From: Vulcanimicrobiota bacterium
Lineage (GTDB): Bacteria; Vulcanimicrobiota; Vulcanimicrobiia; Vulcanimicrobiales; Vulcanimicrobiaceae
Direction of reading: 5' to 3'
Length of the DNA stretch: 64,000 bases
NCBI GenBank assembly: GCA_963758805.1
Contig: CAVWWP010000002.1
Location: 222,918 to 286,917 of the forward strand
Made by a program: the position numbers and the translations under genes. The first letter of the stretch is position 1; every line of letters starts with the position of its first letter. Positions 19,121 to 27,503 of this stretch are shown here, piece by piece. The notes beneath the pieces were generated by a model. It saw only the letters and a list, made by a program, of their open reading frames with translations. It made no database searches and was not told where the DNA came from.

Positions 19121-19957
19121 TTGACCGTACAGGATTGGTATCTTGACGTCGAGTCGCCGGACGGCGTCTGCTTGCACGTGCGAGCTCAAGGCGAGAAGAC
19201 GTCACCTGCGATCATCTTCATTCATGGGTTCTCGCAATCCCATCTGTCGTGGGCGCGTCAGTTTGACGGTCCTTTGGCCGACGAGTTTTATCTCGCCGCG
19301 CTCGACCTGCGCGGCCATGGCTGGTCGGATAAGCCGGATGATGCGGCAGCGTACCGGGAGTCGCGACGGTGGGGCGACGACGTGGCTGCGGTGCTCCGGG
19401 CGCTCGACGTACCGCGCGCCGTGCTCGTCGGGTGGTCGTATGGCGGTCGCGTCATCCTCGACTATCTCGCCGCGCATGGCAGCGAGGCGATCGCTGGAAT
19501 CAACTTCGTCGCGCCGGGGATTGCGGACGAGGATTCCTACTACGGCGCAGACATAGGCTTGATACGCAAGACCATCTCGAGCGATCCGGCTGAGAGCATC
19601 GAGGGGACGCGGGCCTTTCTCCGGGCGTGCTTTGCAAGGGAACCGGATCGCGAGGACTTCGAGCGGATGCTCGCATACAACGCCATGACGCCGCCCGCAA
19701 TTCGCGCCATGCTGCTCGGTCGCGACCTCGACGCGTACGATCTCCTGACGCAAATCGACGTGCCGGTACTCTTTACGCACGGGACCGAGGATGGAATCTT
19801 CACGCCGGCAATGAGCCGCTACGGCGCCGCGACTGTTCCGGGCGCAAAACTCTCGCTCTACGAAGGCATAGGCCATTCGACGTTCTTCGAAGATGCGCCG
19901 CGGTTCAATCGTGAGTTACGCGATTTCGTGCGCGCATGCGTCGGGAGGGCTACATAA
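19121..19957 (+). CDS. Alpha/beta hydrolase
   Basis: TTG 19121. IIFIHGF, nucleophile elbow GWSYGG, C-terminal GIGHSTFFE. Confidence 0.8.
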   Translation: MTVQDWYLDVESPDGVCLHVRAQGEKTSPAIIFIHGFSQSHLSWARQFDGPLADEFYLAALDLRGHGWSDKPDDAAAYRESRRWGDDVAAVLRALDVPRAVLVGWSYGGRVILDYLAAHGSEAIAGINFVAPGIADEDSYYGADIGLIRKTISSDPAESIEGTRAFLRACFAREPDREDFERMLAYNAMTPPAIRAMLLGRDLDAYDLLTQIDVPVLFTHGTEDGIFTPAMSRYGAATVPGAKLSLYEGIGHSTFFEDAPRFNRELRDFVRACVGRAT

Positions 19958-20597
19958 CCTCTTTGACGCCGGCGCGGATGAGTAACCAATTGGCCGGGTA
20001 CGACGTAAGAAAGCCGAGGATCATCCCGATCTGCATCATGAACCAGTAGGCAGGCTGATCCGGGCGCATCTGCGCATGGAAGAAGACGAAGTACGTGAGC
20101 GCCATCCAGCCGAAGAGGCCAATCTCGAAAGCGGTCAGCGAGAGTGTGTCGGCTTTGATCGCCGCCCACAGCGTTGCGCTAACGCTTGAGTGCCGCATTG
20201 GAGCCAACGCGAAGTACTGGAACGCGATCCCAAAGATATAGGCGAGCAGGTAGTCGCCGGCGTACTGCGTTGCGAGCATTGAGTTGAAGAGTATAAATCC
20301 TGTATAGAAGATCGCGAACTCCGCCACAATGTCGCCGAGCACGCACCCGGCGCCGCAATGGGAGACGCCGATCGCAACGCGTGCGAAGAAGGGACGTTCG
20401 CGTTCGGAGGGACGGCCGAGTTTCACGTACATCCACAGTGCTATCGGGCCGCCGTAGAGCGCGGTGATTGGCCAGACCCAGTTCATGATCGCCATCGGCT
20501 GCGGAGAGCGAATCACGTCTACGAGAACGATGAGCGCGCAGGCTGCACCCAGAGCGAGCGATGCAATCGCAAGCGCATTGAGCCAATTCGGAACCAT
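19950..20597 (-). CDS. DUF4396-family integral membrane protein
   Basis: MAIMNWVWPITALYGGPIALWMY and HCGAGCVLGDIVAE motifs typical of DUF4396. Starts 16 nt downstream of the mocA remnant on the same strand. Confidence 0.7.
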   Translation of the reverse strand: MVPNWLNALAIASLALGAACALIVLVDVIRSPQPMAIMNWVWPITALYGGPIALWMYVKLGRPSERERPFFARVAIGVSHCGAGCVLGDIVAEFAIFYTGFILFNSMLATQYAGDYLLAYIFGIAFQYFALAPMRHSSVSATLWAAIKADTLSLTAFEIGLFGWMALTYFVFFHAQMRPDQPAYWFMMQIGMILGFLTSYPANWLLIRAGVKEVM

Positions 20598-20612: not shown

Positions 20613-20936
20613 TTAGAGACGTTCGAACTCCTCCGCAGTGTCGACGTCGAAGAACGCACCGCGATCGGATGTCGGCACGGCGTGACGCGCGAGTGACGGG
20701 TCGTCGCGCAGCGCACGGAGCGTATCGCCGTCGCGTAGCGCCGCGATGCGGCGGCGTGCGAGCGGCGAGAAGATGACCGGATGTCCGGGTTCGCCGCTAG
20801 CATCATGGAGGGGGTAGGCCACGTCGGCATCTCTTAGCGAGTCGTTCATATGTTGAATGAGTGCCGGCGTAACGAACGGCTTGTCGCCCAACAATACGAT
20901 AAGCGCAACGTCGGGCGGCGCGAGACGCGGTAAGAG
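20613..20936 (-). pseudogene. 5'-truncated remnant of a MocA/MobA-like molybdenum-cofactor nucleotidyltransferase
   Basis: Only the C-terminal ~105 codons are present (VALIVLLGDKPFVTPALI...GEPGHPVIFSP...GDTLRAL...FFDVDTAEEFERL). Homology runs right up to the stop codon of the upstream gene. The nucleotide-binding N-half is absent. Confidence 0.7.
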
Positions 20937-22292
20937 TCAGGCGCCGTCTTGTTCGAACTCCGTTCCGGAGACAGCGCATTGCTCGGCTCGCGCGAGCTCT
21001 TTACCCAAGTAGGCGGCGTGATCGAGCTTCGTCACCCAGCCGTTTGAGATGAGCGTCCAGTAGAGCGTGCGCGCATCGCGCCCTTCCGTGAGATGCAGCA
21101 GGTGCTCGCGGTAGTCGTAGTGCTCGAGCTGGATCGTCCGGCCATCGACCGTAATCACGAAGTAGCCTGCGCGATCGAGCTTGATACGATCGGGCAACGG
21201 TGCGCTGGCGGCGACCCGCGGAACGGCCGCCGCCGCGAGAGGCCGTGACTGGGAAGGCGCGACGTCGCGATAGCTGTGCGCAAGCTCCTCGACGACGACG
21301 GCAATTTTCGCGACATCCGTGCAGCCTACCATGTCGACGATTTCTATCTGGGCTCGGAAGCGGTCGATTTCGGCGCGCGTCGTGTTCGGTAGAACCGGTC
21401 GCACGCCCGGCGATCCCACGACGCGTTGCGTCGCATCCGTTCCGTGTTTGTGCAGCGCGAGCAGCGTCGCGCCGGGAAGATGTCGCGGCGTCTCAACGCC
21501 GGCGCAGACGAGCGATCGTATCGCAGGGTTCGTTATGACGTTTCGGACGATCTTCTCGATCCCGATGTTCTCGGTCTCGACCTTGCCTACGATGCAGAGC
21601 CCCGGCGGCGCCGCAAGCGCAATTGATTGAGCGAGGGCGATGCTTCCGAGCGTCGTTACTGCGATGGGAGCCGCTGGGTCGACGACGACGTACGCACCGG
21701 TGACGCGCGGCCATCGCGCCGGGGTTTGACGCAATTTTGGCAATGCGCGCCCCGTGCGATCCATATAGTCGCGATACGCGTCACCAAATCGGCCGAGCAG
21801 AAATCGCTCCTCGCGGCGTACACGAACGGTCAGAAAGAGCGCTGCCACGCCGGCCATCGCCGCGGAAATGACCCAGTTGTGCAACACAGGCGTGAGACCC
21901 ACGGCGCTGACGAAAAGCGCCGCATACATCGGATGCCGAATTCGCGAGTATATCCCGGACGTAATCAGCGTGTGCCCCTCGCGGGCCTGTACGTGAACCG
22001 ACCAGTTCAACCCGAGGTCGTGGTGTGCGCGCCACGCTAGCCAGAACGCCACTAGCAGCAGTACCGTGCCCGCCCAGAAGAGCATCGGCGAGACTGTGAA
22101 GTCGGCGAAATGCAACGTGGATGTGAAAAGGCTCAACAACGGGAGCACGCACATCGCGCCGAACGCGGCGACGATCAGCGCCGTATCGCTCCACGAACGG
22201 CCCCGGATTGCGACGCGCGTCCCGCGTGCTTTCCAGCGGAAGAAGAGCCGCAGCGCGATCACCGCAGCCGCGAAAACGGCGTAGACGATCAC
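20937..22292 (-). CDS. Fusion protein: membrane ICMT/PEMT-family methyltransferase + MtrA-like corrinoid-binding domain + DUF4346
   Basis: aa 1-185: TM helices plus LITSGIYSRIRHPMY...EERFLLGRFGDAYRDYMDRTGRALP. aa ~190-350: WPRVTGAYVVVDP..PIAVTTLGS, GKVETENIGIEKIVRNVITNPAIRSLVCAGVETPRHLPG, LHKHG, VVGSPG (MtrA family). C-terminus: IKLDRAGYFVITVDG...AAYLGKELARAE (DUF4346). Confidence 0.8.
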   Translation of the reverse strand: MIVYAVFAAAVIALRLFFRWKARGTRVAIRGRSWSDTALIVAAFGAMCVLPLLSLFTSTLHFADFTVSPMLFWAGTVLLLVAFWLAWRAHHDLGLNWSVHVQAREGHTLITSGIYSRIRHPMYAALFVSAVGLTPVLHNWVISAAMAGVAALFLTVRVRREERFLLGRFGDAYRDYMDRTGRALPKLRQTPARWPRVTGAYVVVDPAAPIAVTTLGSIALAQSIALAAPPGLCIVGKVETENIGIEKIVRNVITNPAIRSLVCAGVETPRHLPGATLLALHKHGTDATQRVVGSPGVRPVLPNTTRAEIDRFRAQIEIVDMVGCTDVAKIAVVVEELAHSYRDVAPSQSRPLAAAAVPRVAASAPLPDRIKLDRAGYFVITVDGRTIQLEHYDYREHLLHLTEGRDARTLYWTLISNGWVTKLDHAAYLGKELARAEQCAVSGTEFEQDGA

Positions 22293-22690
22293 ATGCGGAA
22301 CATCCCGTGGAGCATCGGGCTGTTCAAGACGACGTGGACGATCGCGAGGATTGCGATCGCAAGCATCAACGCAAAATGCCAGCGTTTCAAACCGCTGCGC
22401 CCACCACTACGACGCGCCATCGAGGTCCCCAAAATGATCTGCCCGACGATCAGGAGAAGCGCAAGCGTCGCAATATCGAGGCCCACGACGCTGGTATGCG
22501 CCGCCATTCGACCCGACATCGAGATCATCATATGGACGATGACGAGTGCGGCGATGATGTAGCCGACGACGTAATGCAGGCGCATCGGCGGCGTACCGCG
22601 GCGTAGGCAATAGGGTAATGCGATCGTCACCCCGATGAGTAGCAGCGCGAAATAGCCGGTCGCACTTGTCGTAAGAACTGCGCCACTCAT
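22289..22690 (-). CDS. His-rich 4-TM membrane protein, function unknown
   Basis: 133 aa, four hydrophobic helices each carrying His (LHYVVGY, VIVHMMIS, RWHFALM, AIVHVVLN). 4-nt overlaps with both neighbours. Confidence 0.55.
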   Translation of the reverse strand: MSGAVLTTSATGYFALLLIGVTIALPYCLRRGTPPMRLHYVVGYIIAALVIVHMMISMSGRMAAHTSVVGLDIATLALLLIVGQIILGTSMARRSGGRSGLKRWHFALMLAIAILAIVHVVLNSPMLHGMFRM

Positions 22691-23217
22691 GGAGCATCAT
22701 TGCTCAAGCGTTTGAGCGCGCGGTCGATCCAAGCGAGCTCTGCGTCGACCATCGCGATGACGTGATCGGCTGATACTTGCGCGAAGACACCTCGTGCGTG
22801 GACGCCGGAAAACTCTTCGACAAGGAGTTTCTTACGGGCCTGCACGACAGTGCGCCGTTCGCGGAGAAGGGCCAACGATTCCGCGATCGGCAGATCGGCC
22901 AGCAATACGACCGCAACTTCGATGCCGGAGTGCAGCGTTTCGTAGCTGCAAACGACGTCGCGCAAGAGGGACGCAAGACGCCGGCGCCCTTTCGGCGTGA
23001 TCGCATAAACGACGCGCTCGCCGCGCCGCCCGCGTGTGCCCGGCTCAGTGCGCGTCTTCAAGTAGCCTTGCTCGGCCAGGCGCGCGACGAGGTGATAAAG
23101 GTTGGCCTTCTTGAGGTCGGCGTAGAGCTCGCCGTGCGCCTGCACGATGCGGTGTAGCTCGTGGCCGTGCATCGCGCCGCCCTCGAGGATCCCCAAGACG
23201 ATTAGTTCCTTATGCAT
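22687..23217 (-). CDS. PadR-family transcriptional regulator
   Basis: LIVLGILEGGAMHGHELHRIV...LYHLVARLAEQGYL...VYAITPKGRRRL winged-helix signature plus a C-terminal helical domain. Confidence 0.85.
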   Translation of the reverse strand: MHKELIVLGILEGGAMHGHELHRIVQAHGELYADLKKANLYHLVARLAEQGYLKTRTEPGTRGRRGERVVYAITPKGRRRLASLLRDVVCSYETLHSGIEVAVVLLADLPIAESLALLRERRTVVQARKKLLVEEFSGVHARGVFAQVSADHVIAMVDAELAWIDRALKRLSNDAP

Positions 23218-23219
23218 GT

Positions 23220-23237
23220 AAAGTCACCACTGACTTT
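23220..23237. promoter_or_regulatory. Operator-like palindrome 1 (AAAGTCA-N4-TGACTTT) abutting the padR start codon
   Basis: AAAGTCA 23220..23226, CCAC, TGACTTT 23231..23237. Perfect 7-bp arms. Confidence 0.4.
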
Positions 23238-23253
23238 ATCGTGTCGCTCCGTT

Positions 23254-23270
23254 AAAGTCAATACTGACTA
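23254..23270. promoter_or_regulatory. Operator-like palindrome 2 (AAAGTCA-N4-TGACTA)
   Basis: AAAGTCA 23254..23260, ATAC, TGACTA 23265..23270. Same half-site and spacing as palindrome 1, centres 34 bp apart. Confidence 0.4.
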
Positions 23271-24520: not shown

Positions 24521-24595
24521 TGGTGGGCGGTACATGGATTGAACATGTGACCTCTTCCGTGTCAAGGAAGCGCTCTCCCACTGAGCTAACCGCCC
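24521..24595 (-). tRNA. tRNA-Val (anticodon GAC), CCA encoded
   Basis: GGGCGGT acceptor, GCTCAGTGGGAGAGC D-arm, CTTCC-TTGACAC-GGAAG anticodon arm, ACATG-TTCAATC-CATGT T-arm, ACCGCCC-A-CCA. 75 nt. Confidence 0.9.
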
Positions 24596-24623
24596 GCGCC
24601 GAAACGCCTACTTCGCACCAGGT

Positions 24624-24653
24624 TTGACAGAGCCTTTGCCTGCGTGGTAATGT
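24624..24653 (+). promoter_or_regulatory. Strong sigma-70-like promoter (TTGACA-18-TAATGT)
   Basis: TTGACA 24624..24629, TAATGT 24648..24653. Faces away from tRNA-Val(GAC). Confidence 0.45.
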
Positions 24654-24689
24654 TGCCGACATATTCCTTTTATCGACCATGGAGGACGC

Positions 24690-24782
24690 ATGACGAATCG
24701 CAACGATCGAATCAGCCTCTCCACGCCGGCAAACGACGGCGGGTCGATGTGCTATGGACCTTCGGATGCCGGACTGACATAA
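24690..24782 (+). CDS. Candidate 30-codon small ORF (MTNRNDRISLSTPANDGGSMCYGPSDAGLT); may instead be part of a small RNA
   Basis: GGAGGA 24681..24686 then ATG 24690, TAA 24780..24782. Framed by a promoter and a terminator. Confidence 0.3.
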   Translation: MTNRNDRISLSTPANDGGSMCYGPSDAGLT

Positions 24783-24808
24783 GCGTCAGTCTATAAATAG
24801 CTAATCCG

Positions 24809-24842
24809 AAGGCCTCCGCGATCGAGTGGGGGCCTTTTCAAT
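24809..24842 (+). terminator. Rho-independent terminator-like hairpin
   Basis: AAGGCCTCC 24809..24817 pairs with GGGGGCCTT 24828..24836 (one G-U), followed by TTTCAATT. Confidence 0.5.
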
Positions 24843-25055
24843 TGCTGCCATTCTGCTTGTAAGCGAATGATGAACTTGTGGATTGAAATCGAAGTCCGAA
24901 AACGCCATGCCGATGCCGCCGAAAGTGCGCGGCGCCGTCGGCTCGCTCGCATCGCGCAGTGCCCGGGTATTCGGGATCGAGCTGCCGATAGCGCGCAGGC
25001 GATGAGCAACGCACTGGCTACCCTGGCGCGGACGCTACGCCGGCGCGAAACAGCG

Positions 25056-25084
25056 TAGACGAACGGACGGGGGTAGGGTAAGCT
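25056..25084 (+). promoter_or_regulatory. Weak candidate promoter for the tRNA Val-Asp-Phe operon
   Basis: TAGACG 25056..25061, 17-nt spacer, TAAGCT 25079..25084, about 30 nt upstream of tRNA-Val(CAC). Confidence 0.25.
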
Positions 25085-25112
25085 ATGGTTTTGTCCAAGG
25101 AGCCGTCGGTTC

Positions 25113-25187
25113 GGGCGCGTAGCTCAGTGGGAGAGCATCCGCTTCACACGCGGGGGGTCGTTGGTTCAATCCCAACCGTGCCCACCA
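25113..25187 (+). tRNA. tRNA-Val (anticodon CAC), CCA encoded
   Basis: GGGCGCG acceptor, GCTCAGTGGGAGAGC, TCCGC-TTCACAC-GCGGG, GTTGG-TTCAATC-CCAAC, CGTGCCC-A-CCA. 75 nt. Confidence 0.9.
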
Positions 25188-25212
25188 CGCCCGATCCGGC
25201 GTACCGATTCTT

Positions 25213-25289
25213 GGCGCTGTAGCTCAGTTGGTTAGAGCGTCGCCCTGTCACGGCGAAGGTCGTGGGTTCGAGCCCCATCAGCGTCGCCA
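25213..25289 (+). tRNA. tRNA-Asp (anticodon GTC), CCA encoded
   Basis: GGCGCTG acceptor, GCTCAGTTGGTTAGAGC, TCGCC-CTGTCAC-GGCGA, GTGGG-TTCGAGC-CCCAT, CAGCGTC-G-CCA. 77 nt. Confidence 0.9.
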
Positions 25290-25351
25290 TCGTCACGAGC
25301 GCACTGCATCAACCCGGTGCGGTGCGCTCGCTACAATTGAGAATAACGCGC

Positions 25352-25424
25352 GCCAAGGTAGCTCAGTTGGTAGAGCACGCGCCTGAAAAGCGCGGTGTCG
25401 CCGGTCCGATTCCGGCCCTTGGCA
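25352..25424 (+). tRNA. tRNA-Phe (anticodon GAA), no encoded CCA, atypical T-loop
   Basis: GCCAAGG acceptor, GCTCAGTTGGTAGAGC, CGCGC-CTGAAAA-GCGCG, GCCGG-TCCGATT-CCGGC, CCTTGGC-A. 73 nt. Confidence 0.85.
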
Positions 25425-27328: not shown

Positions 27329-27402
27329 CGCGGGTATGATGTAATGGCAGCCTGCGACCTTCCCAAGGTTGATGCGTGGGTTCGATTCCCACTACCCGCT
27401 CC
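27329..27402 (+). tRNA. tRNA-Gly (anticodon CCC), CCA encoded, weak D-stem
   Basis: GCGGGTA acceptor, CGACC-TTCCCAA-GGTTG, GTGGG-TTCGATT-CCCAC, TACCCGC-T-CCA. D-stem ATGT/GCCT has one U-C mismatch. 74 nt. Confidence 0.8.
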
Positions 27403-27428
27403 ACCATTCGAAGTTCGCAGTGTGACAA

Positions 27429-27503
27429 GGCGACGTAGCCAAGTGGTAAGGCAGGGCTCTGCAAAAGCCCCATTCGGCAGTTCGAATCTGCCCGTCGCCT
27501 CCA
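27429..27503 (+). tRNA. tRNA-Cys (anticodon GCA), CCA encoded
   Basis: GGCGACG acceptor, GCCAAGTGGTAAGGC, GGGCT-CTGCAAA-AGCCC, GGCAG-TTCGAAT-CTGCC, CGTCGCC-T-CCA. 75 nt. Confidence 0.9.

Follow-up and report, generated by a model that had tools for sequence, protein, structure and literature searches.

An ICMT-MtrA-DUF4346 fusion protein and its predicted cytochrome b partner look like an undescribed B12-dependent membrane enzyme system in a Vulcanimicrobiota bacterium

The fusion protein and its closest described relatives

Studies of MtrA-type cobamide binding have so far been confined to the Mtr sodium pump of archaea, in which MtrA is a membrane-associated corrinoid methyl carrier (structures 5L8X, 5LAA and 8Q3V). 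His84 of this protein is the experimentally established lower axial ligand of the cobalt, Glu54 hydrogen-bonds to it, and the contacts to the nucleotide tail and to the propionamides are made by Tyr18, Thr53, Asn55, Gly57, Val61 and Asn64 (Wagner et al., PMC4915002). An MtrA-fold domain outside the Mtr complex, fused to a methyltransferase partner, has been described in Asgard archaea, and the activity of the archaeal MtrA-like and MtrAH proteins "remains unclear" in the authors' words (PMC11291895). In the Asgard MtrAH proteins the partner is the pterin-dependent MtrH, whereas in the protein described here it is a membrane methyltransferase dependent on S-adenosylmethionine (SAM), of the isoprenylcysteine carboxyl methyltransferase (ICMT) family, accompanied by a DUF4346 domain and a putative cytochrome b. 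The gene lies in a 64,000-nucleotide stretch of a Vulcanimicrobiota bacterium (GenBank assembly GCA_963758805.1, contig CAVWWP010000002.1, positions 222,918 to 286,917; hereafter the window), where the open reading frame (ORF) at 20937-22292 of the reverse strand is a single intact gene of 451 amino acids plus stop, beginning with GTG. The three-domain membrane protein that it encodes is genuine. Judged from gene order and domain content, the fusion is the predicted catalytic core of a three-gene operon (padR, a putative dihaem cytochrome b and the fusion itself), and the cytochrome b and the fusion together look like an undescribed B12-dependent membrane enzyme system in a soil bacterium.

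All three domains (ICMT, MtrA and PterinBD-DUF4346) were detected by Pfam above their gathering scores. The order that the original prediction had read from the sequence, an ICMT/PEMT-type enzyme followed by an MtrA-like and a DUF4346 domain, was upheld by Pfam, NCBIfam, PDB matches and the superposition of an AlphaFold2 (AF2) model with Foldseek, and the motifs quoted in it were found in the translation where it had placed them. The AF2 model of the whole protein, computed from an alignment of 114 sequences, has a mean predicted local distance difference test (pLDDT) score of 87.8, with low confidence in the linkers 187-192 and 355-374 and in the last few C-terminal residues.

The ICMT-fold domain, with about five transmembrane (TM) helices, occupies residues 1-186 (21735..22292, reverse strand), as placed by NF040696, the 4a2n alignment and Foldseek. 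Pfam ICMT (PF04140) matches residues 78-165 with E 3.6e-16 (59.8 bits against a cut-off of 24), overlapped by a PEMT match with E 2.3e-10, and the NCBIfam equivalog isopcys_mtase (NF040696) is passed over residues 2-187 at 175.6 bits (cut-off 160). Ma-ICMT (4a2n) is the PDB sequence match of this domain (E 2e-26), and the AF2 model superposes on it with a TM-score of 0.88 over 188 columns. Since the alignment extends to residue 192 of the 194 residues of Ma-ICMT, the fusion joint coincides exactly with the natural end of the methyltransferase, its cytoplasmic C-terminus, which puts the corrinoid part on the cytoplasmic side; a short flexible linker leads on to the MtrA-fold domain. When positions with at least 80% conservation in 46 stand-alone homologs were taken as conserved, all 29 such positions of the catalytic half (residues 85-187) were identical in the fusion, and the SAM/catalytic motifs HxDLGxNWS, GxYxxxRHPMY and EE…FGxxYxxYxxxTxR are kept. 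The fusion thus shares with Ma-ICMT and Ste14 the full-length five-TM fold, the motifs and the NCBIfam threshold, and differs from them in having a corrinoid module at the C-terminus of the enzyme. By score, fold and motifs the domain is a bona fide member of the ICMT family, intact and no decayed anchor.

The ICMTs that are linked to MtrA, either fused or adjacent, nevertheless form a group of their own, and unlike the stand-alone enzymes they lack the Arg of DLG-R-NWS and the Trp residues after RHPMY. These derived substitutions, at residues 95 and 126-147, leave the SAM motifs in place, and they hint that the acceptor site may be altered in the MtrA-linked enzymes. To our knowledge, the CaaX prenylation pathway is absent from bacteria. 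The closest stand-alone ICMTs showed no linkage to MtrA-DUF4346 in the three contexts inspected.

The second domain, a predicted MtrA-fold cobamide-binding domain at residues 190-340 (21273..21725, reverse strand), was assigned from PF04208, its fold and the residues of its pocket. The Pfam match covers residues 190-339 with E 3.6e-39 (134.6 bits against a cut-off of 25), the PDB sequence matches are the archaeal MtrA structures 5laa and 5l8x (E about 1e-30), and the AF2 model superposes on both with a TM-score of 0.84 and a root-mean-square deviation of 1.7-2.1 Å. After the MtrA numbering had been checked along chain 5laa_A, on which His35, Glu54 and His84 land on H, E and H, the residues of the pocket were mapped by alignment to 5laa and by translation. 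The motif ETPRHLPG, encoded at 21471-21494, contains His271 (codon at 21480..21482), which aligns with His84 and is the predicted lower axial ligand of the cobalt, as the original prediction had proposed; Glu241 (codon at 21570..21572) corresponds to Glu54, the relay to the axial histidine. Tyr18, Thr53, Asn55, Gly57 and Asn64 are identical in the fusion (Y201, T240, N242, G244 and N251), and only Val61 is replaced, conservatively, by I248. The mapped residues, including H271 and E241, are invariant in an alignment of 21 sequences from Proteobacteria, Verrucomicrobia, KSB1 and others; therefore the conservation extends beyond the histidine to the entire pocket, which by homology is a complete base-off/His-on cobamide site.

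In spite of the shared Rossmann-like fold, His84 ligand, Glu54 relay and tail pocket, the domain is only 37-38% identical to MtrA of the Mtr complex and falls well below the equivalog of that subunit (TIGR01111, 122 bits against a cut-off of 249), as it does below two other MtrA models (NF002128, 276.9 against 568; NF002126, 129.3 against 161), although the MtrA models all matched strongly. The C-terminal TM anchor of the Mtr type is absent, with no TM segment after residue 340, and mtrB-H genes are absent from the neighbourhood, where PadR, the cytochrome b, a MobA fragment and DUF4396 are found instead. Unlike archaeal MtrA, the fusion is bacterial, occurs in probable aerobes and is anchored by an N-terminal enzyme domain, with DUF4346 following. 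From these comparisons the fusion contains a predicted member of the MtrA fold and is no subunit of an Mtr complex.

The third domain, DUF4346, occupies residues 372-451 (20940..21179, reverse strand) with three β-strands followed by two helices. PF14251 (PterinBD-DUF4346) matches residues 372-449 with E 2.2e-20 (73.7 bits against a cut-off of 29.6), and 23 residues are invariant over 30 sequences. The model of the domain alone reaches a pLDDT of 91, and Foldseek returned no significant PDB match for its fold, the best hits (E 0.066) being ribosomal proteins and ASKHA fragments; a solved or curated relative was not found.

Distribution, operon and recurring gene combinations

The identical 451-residue protein recurs in an independent assembly from Logan, and the same architecture, at about 60% identity, is found in a 40-member 90% cluster of Candidatus Cybelea sp. 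(Vulcanimicrobiota, also called Eremiobacterota), on contigs of up to 2.3 Mb. Further clusters (P0003-P0007, and P0009, which is labelled Dormibacteraeota) bring the number of fusion sequences from independent samples to more than 40, most of them Candidatus Cybelea; the clusters are drawn from four sources (NCBI, JGI, ENA and Logan samples) and the fusion is present in the genome loci L008, L010 and L035. An exhaustive HMMER scan of 1.84 billion representatives at 50% identity returned 163 proteins at E<1e-30, among which the full three-domain form occurred only in the cluster of the fusion itself; the same scan also returned a frameshifted chain of a cytochrome-b-like domain, ICMT and MtrA (P0212). 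The fusion is real, lineage-restricted and rare, amounting to essentially one cluster at 50% identity. One of these loci, L035, is labelled Candidatus Acidiferrales and shares with the Candidatus Cybelea locus L008 the neighbouring phosphoesterase, amidohydrolase, cytochrome b and fusion families, and in L035 an ORF beginning with PadR sequence also precedes the cytochrome b. This likeness despite different phylum labels could be due to a recent transfer or to a mis-binned contig.

The names that the databanks give to the fusion are automated and each cover half of the protein, namely "protein-S-isoprenylcysteine O-methyltransferase" (NCBI) and "MtrA" (JGI). We found no description of an ICMT-corrinoid fusion in the literature, where the combination of ICMT and corrinoid yields generic reviews only. 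Literature on the bacterial MtrA-DUF4346 family was likewise not found: DUF4346 returns no paper and the reports on MtrA-like proteins are archaeal only. Apart from these half-names, both the lack of an assigned function and the lack of a described fusion, which the original prediction had put forward, therefore agree with what the databases and the literature returned.

The fusion is the third gene of its operon, which had escaped the original prediction. The first, at 22687..23217 (reverse strand), encodes a PadR-family transcriptional regulator (Pfam PadR, E 3.2e-12), and its stop overlaps the start of the second by 4 nt (ATGA); the second, at 22289..22690 (reverse strand), encodes a 133-residue protein with four TM helices, and its stop in turn overlaps the GTG start of the fusion by 4 nt (GTGA). 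The suggestion that the fusion might be self-contained was consequently wrong, because its translation is coupled to that of a dedicated cytochrome-b-like protein and of a PadR regulator. Upstream of padR there is a weak sigma-70-like promoter match (23233..23261, reverse strand; 9 of 12 positions), and promoter-like sites in the region are no more frequent than in shuffled sequence. The gene order was seen in at least nine independent loci: PadR, small membrane protein and fusion follow one another in L002-L004, L008, L010 and L035, and L050, L052 and L053 have the same order with the third gene cut by the contig end. A padR gene takes the matching position in L002, L004, L008, L010, L035, L045, L050, L052 and L053.

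Four histidines of the 4-TM protein, invariant in seven sequences, are arranged as H39 and H53 on one TM helix and H105 and H119 on another. The spacing in each pair is 14 residues (13 intervening), and by the positive-inside rule the pairs between the helices lie at equal depth in the membrane. Such a spacing on two helices is the signature of a dihaem cytochrome b that spans the membrane, and helices B and D of the bc1 cytochrome b show it. The protein has no significant relatives in PDB or Pfam, its matches to Ni_hydr_CYTB (PF01292; E 4.4e-4, 20.5 bits against 30.1) and to DUF4405 (E 0.017, 16 bits against 26.7) lying below the cut-offs, and one JGI homolog carries the name "thiosulfate reductase cytochrome b subunit". 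From the invariant histidines it is a probable dihaem b-type cytochrome. The family comprises 20 clusters only, all in the lineages of the fusion, which indicates that this protein is a dedicated partner of the fusion.

An extra gene stands between padR and the cytochrome b in four loci (L010:4679-4990, L045:5167-5514, L050:1523-1870 and L052:5683-5994) and is missing from the window; its product of 103-115 residues begins with a TM or signal segment, contains a β-rich domain with a weak DUF5666 match and shows no homology to the C-terminal tails of P0214, P0238, P0258 and P0260.

The components of the fusion also recur in other combinations. Two Rhodospirillaceae metagenome-assembled genomes (MAGs) encode a cation diffusion facilitator (CDF) transporter, an ICMT, a DUF2569-like membrane protein and MtrA-DUF4346 as separate, neighbouring genes in this order; their ICMTs share 42-45% identity with the fused domain, which is as much as its best stand-alone relatives do. 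In Candidatus Cybelea locus L045 a cytochrome b is followed by a stand-alone MtrA-DUF4346 gene without ICMT, and P0240 is a cytochrome-b-like domain fused to ICMT. In L030 and L044 the gene immediately upstream of a stand-alone family member encodes a haem-b membrane protein of the Ferric_reduct family, once fused to DUF2569. In Bacteroidota, SAM methyltransferases of the unrelated class I flank the family gene, upstream in L017, downstream in L012 and as a deletion remnant in L011. All pairwise links, whether fused, adjacent or split, were thus seen, which makes this a Rosetta-stone case for a corrinoid module, a SAM methyltransferase and a haem protein; we infer that cytochrome b, ICMT and MtrA-DUF4346 may form one membrane complex.

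Some of these loci have peculiarities of their own. The apparent operon of the Rhodospirillaceae split version lies at 5837-8858 of L005 (same contig as L019), with the ICMT gene joined by a 4-nt overlap, and the second gene upstream in L006 encodes a HupE/UreJ Ni/Co permease; the CDF transporter of L005 and the permease of L006 are isolated associations with metal transport. An apparent architecture of class-I methyltransferase and DUF4346 in L011 was rejected, as BLAST shows it to be a deletion chimera, and the locus was used for gene order only. In this in-frame chimera (L011:615-1439), half of the methyltransferase runs directly into the final portion of MtrA and DUF4346, and the histidine ligand is lost; over residues 28-120 the chimera shares 74% identity with the class-I methyltransferase encoded ahead of MtrA-DUF4346 in L017. 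It is either a pseudogene or an artefact of assembly, and an intact copy lies at a distance of 4.5 kb. Two overlapping ORFs take the place of a single MtrA-DUF4346 gene in the MAG loci L012:1982-2839 and L044:5932-6791, owing to a frameshift or a sequencing error.

The parent family and the surroundings of the operon

The stand-alone MtrA-DUF4346 proteins, of about 285 residues and with an N-terminal amphipathic 'MEDFGFFLSRTFA' helix, form more than 1,000 clusters with 55-65% identity across phyla. All-vs-all clustering of ORFs in 43 loci gave no universally conserved neighbour of the stand-alone genes, and in a Pfam census of 126 nearest neighbours the top families, MFS and LysR, occurred in only four loci each. 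The sole cultured carrier found is Acidaminobacter hydrogenoformans DSM 2784 (L042), in which the gene is flanked by an MFS transporter and by a pyridoxal phosphate (PLP) enzyme plus RidA.

Many distant members carry an N-terminal extension of about 105 residues (for example P0213, P0215, P0217, P0218, P0222 and P0223, and likewise P0226, P0228 and P0233), which in these named proteins is a six-Cys domain; extensions are also present in loci L037-L039 and L043. The domain, with the motif KCxxCGC…Y-x-CLGCxxCxP, is covered by NCBIfam NF002128 and has no significant Pfam or PDB relative. By analogy with the [4Fe-4S] domain of the corrinoid iron-sulfur protein (CFeSP), it may be an Fe-S or metal-binding module. 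A multi-TM domain with the vicinal-cysteine motif GCCGSPM, which we take to be reminiscent of transporters of thiophilic metals, is N-terminal in P0227, P0249, P0266 and P0267 and C-terminal in P0245, and some distant members end in TM segments with thioredoxin-like tails. Two single metagenomic gene calls add further partners: P0216 combines an ArsR/SmtB metalloregulator helix-turn-helix (HTH) with the six-Cys domain, MtrA and DUF4346, and P0357 combines MtrA and DUF4346 with an archaeal-type thymidylate synthase.

Within the window, 43 nt downstream of the fusion, there is a 93-residue ORF (20613-20894, reverse strand) whose similarity to MobA/MocA-like NTP transferases is confined to their C-terminal third (positions 93-154 of the 160 in the Pfam profile, and 97-188 in TIGR03310). 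The ORF is probably what remains of a truncated gene, and is also present, called as 78 residues, on the independent contig L001. Further downstream of the operon, at 19950-20597 (reverse strand) and again in L001, is a DUF4396 integral membrane protein (E 9e-40) with the Cys motif SHCGAGCVLGD. In the Cybelea loci DUF4396 is not kept beside the fusion, which is followed by FMN_bind_2 (PaiB-like) in L002 and L004, with homologs in L008, L010 and L035. On the padR side, starting about 1.3 kb past that end of the operon, there are six tRNA genes in two clusters, at 24521-25424 (Val-GAC, Val-CAC, Asp and Phe) and at 27330-27503 (Gly-CCC and Cys).

Possible mechanisms and significance

Methylation of reduced cobalamin by SAM is established for the reductive reactivation of MetH and for the TsrM-type class B radical-SAM methylases. 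We hypothesise that the fusion and its partner may achieve a comparable reaction with other means. The cytochrome b would relay electrons across or along the membrane and keep the cobalt reduced, the ICMT domain would methylate the reduced cobamide with SAM, and the resulting CH3-Co(III) would deliver the methyl group to an acceptor for which direct methylation by SAM is impossible or inefficient, at a site possibly formed by DUF4346. As for the acceptor, our leading guess is a soft metal(loid) or a thiol, because of the scattered Cys-rich modules, the ArsR/SmtB fusion and the neighbouring CDF transporter in the wider family. SAM-driven, haem-b-assisted methylation of the cobamide followed by transfer to an acceptor, all within one membrane complex, is put forward tentatively, as a credible course of events that still falls short of probable. 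The original prediction had suggested a membrane methyl relay, and of this the coupling of a SAM methyltransferase to a corrinoid has become more credible owing to the 29 of 29 retained ICMT positions, the conserved pocket, the adjacency in Rhodospirillaceae and the class-I methyltransferases of Bacteroidota, while the flow from SAM through the corrinoid to an acceptor is still something we infer.

Likeness to the known systems is one of logic. With the MetH reactivation module and TsrM the fusion shares no homology, only the proposed combination of an electron donor with methylation of cobalamin by SAM, and the SAM fold, the B12 fold and the electron donor (a membrane haem b, not flavodoxin or Fe-S) are all different; the B12-binding and activation domains of MetH and a radical-SAM domain are absent from the Pfam results, and 1bmt appeared in Foldseek only as a non-significant fold match (E 0.067). 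The comparison with HgcA drawn in the original prediction holds as an analogy, since HgcAB too pairs a TM-attached corrinoid domain with a dedicated electron-transfer partner and methylates a soft metal by carbanion transfer. The defining parts of HgcAB are nevertheless different: in HgcA the corrinoid domain is of the CFeSP type, with a Cys-on cap helix, and the methyl group comes from methyl-tetrahydrofolate (methyl-H4folate), HgcB is a 2[4Fe-4S] ferredoxin, and neither the corrinoid domain, the Cys cap helix nor a ferredoxin of this type had a Pfam or NCBIfam match in the fusion or its neighbours. CmuA, of chloromethane utilisation, resembles the fusion in uniting methyltransferase and corrinoid-binding domains in one polypeptide, but is soluble, combines an MtaA/CobA-type methyltransferase with a MetH-type B12 domain and has chloromethane as methyl donor. 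That the fusion represents a new class of B12-dependent membrane methyltransferase, independent of radical-SAM enzymes and HgcAB, with stand-alone members using other donors or reductants, is a bolder claim, which we consider doubtful; its substrate would lie beyond SAM enzymes, for instance a carbon or thiol centre embedded in the membrane, or a soft metal(loid) that receives the methyl group as a carbanion.

Several observations weigh against SAM-driven, haem-assisted methylation. The potentials of haem b are far above that of Co(II)/Co(I), and the reduction would need to be coupled to the methylation. The search for RNA elements in the window returned only the six tRNAs and no cobalamin riboswitch, and no B12 genes lie nearby. 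The predicted template modelling score (pTM) of the AF2 model is 0.60, and the packing of the domains is not reliably predicted. Moreover, about 30 of 40 stand-alone loci have neither a methyltransferase nor a haem protein nearby, so methylation by SAM is not the universal input of the family; the N-terminal modules vary (amphipathic helix, six-Cys domain, Cys-rich TM domain or ICMT), and the common need could be membrane tethering or redox supply rather than SAM.

Two other functions have to be considered, both of them unlikely in our judgement. One is that the fusion is a conventional ICMT, which uses SAM directly to methylate a substrate of its own, probably a small thiol or a carboxylate of a lipid or peptide, and which is switched by MtrA-DUF4346 as a sensor of redox state, B12 availability or light, with the cytochrome b setting or reporting the redox state of the cobalt. 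This would fit the complete ICMT domain, which passes its equivalog cut-off alone, the PadR regulator at the head of the operon, the attachment of the module to very different partners and the architecture of P0216, which is that of a ligand-sensing transcription factor and has an analogue in the CarH-type B12 photoreceptors. P0216 is, however, a single metagenomic gene call, and the stand-alone form, without any output domain, keeps its 55-65% identity across phyla, which is more typical of an enzyme. Furthermore, the known MtrA-fold domains have so far all been catalytic methyl carriers, and the derived changes near the acceptor site of the MtrA-linked ICMTs suggest an altered substrate, not just added regulation.

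The other function, to which we assign the same low likelihood, is that of a redox corrinoid, in which Co(I), with electrons from the cytochrome b, would carry out chemistry other than methyl transfer (reduction, dealkylation, dehalogenation or cobamide processing), and the ICMT would be mainly a membrane anchor docking to the cytochrome, possibly with an unrelated activity of its own. In every architecture, indeed, the module is found together with a membrane anchor or with what may be a redox module (amphipathic N-terminal helix, six-Cys domain, Cys-rich TM domain, or a Ferric_reduct or cytochrome b neighbour), the Cybelea locus L045 has the cytochrome b without ICMT, and a methyltransferase is missing from the vicinity of most family members. 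An anchor alone, on the other hand, would not retain all 29 positions of the catalytic half, the independent association with two unrelated folds of SAM methyltransferase points to methyl chemistry, and methyl carriers are the sole characterised proteins of the MtrA fold.

It seems quite improbable that the cobamide is methylated, as in Mtr, from methyl-H4folate or methyl-tetrahydromethanopterin (methyl-H4MPT), with DUF4346 binding the pterin or a partner and the fused ICMT acting downstream or in parallel. Such a pterin-linked carrier would be compatible with the presence of DUF4346 at the end of archaeal dihydropteroate-synthase-like proteins (TIGR00284 matches), with the fusion of P0357 to an archaeal-type thymidylate synthase and with the name PterinBD-DUF4346 that Pfam now gives to the domain. 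However, neither the operon nor the recurrent neighbours include a pterin methyltransferase of the MtrH, MeTr or dihydropteroate synthase (DHPS) type, the fold of DUF4346 matches no pterin-binding structure, and ICMT enzymes use SAM, not methyl-cobamide. Finally, separate ICMT and MtrA-DUF4346 genes do occur in other bacteria and frameshifted family members are known in the MAGs L012 and L044, but an artefact in which adjacent genes were joined by an assembly or sequencing indel, a worry raised at the outset, is dispelled and effectively refuted by the identical product on two independent assemblies, by the continuous architecture in clusters from four sources and by a short linker of conserved position at the natural end of the ICMT.

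The bacterial MtrA-DUF4346 branch is highly conserved and extends over many phyla, including probable aerobes, and the fusion is its most informative member, since it links the corrinoid domain physically with a SAM methyltransferase and, by its place in the operon, with a membrane haem protein. The biochemical hypothesis that it yields can be tested on all members of the family. Should SAM be the source of methyl-cobamide at the membrane, as we tentatively propose, this would be a new route of B12-dependent methylation and the first physiological role for a prokaryotic ICMT, with a possible bearing on the methylation of metal(loid)s in soils and peat, where Vulcanimicrobiota are abundant.

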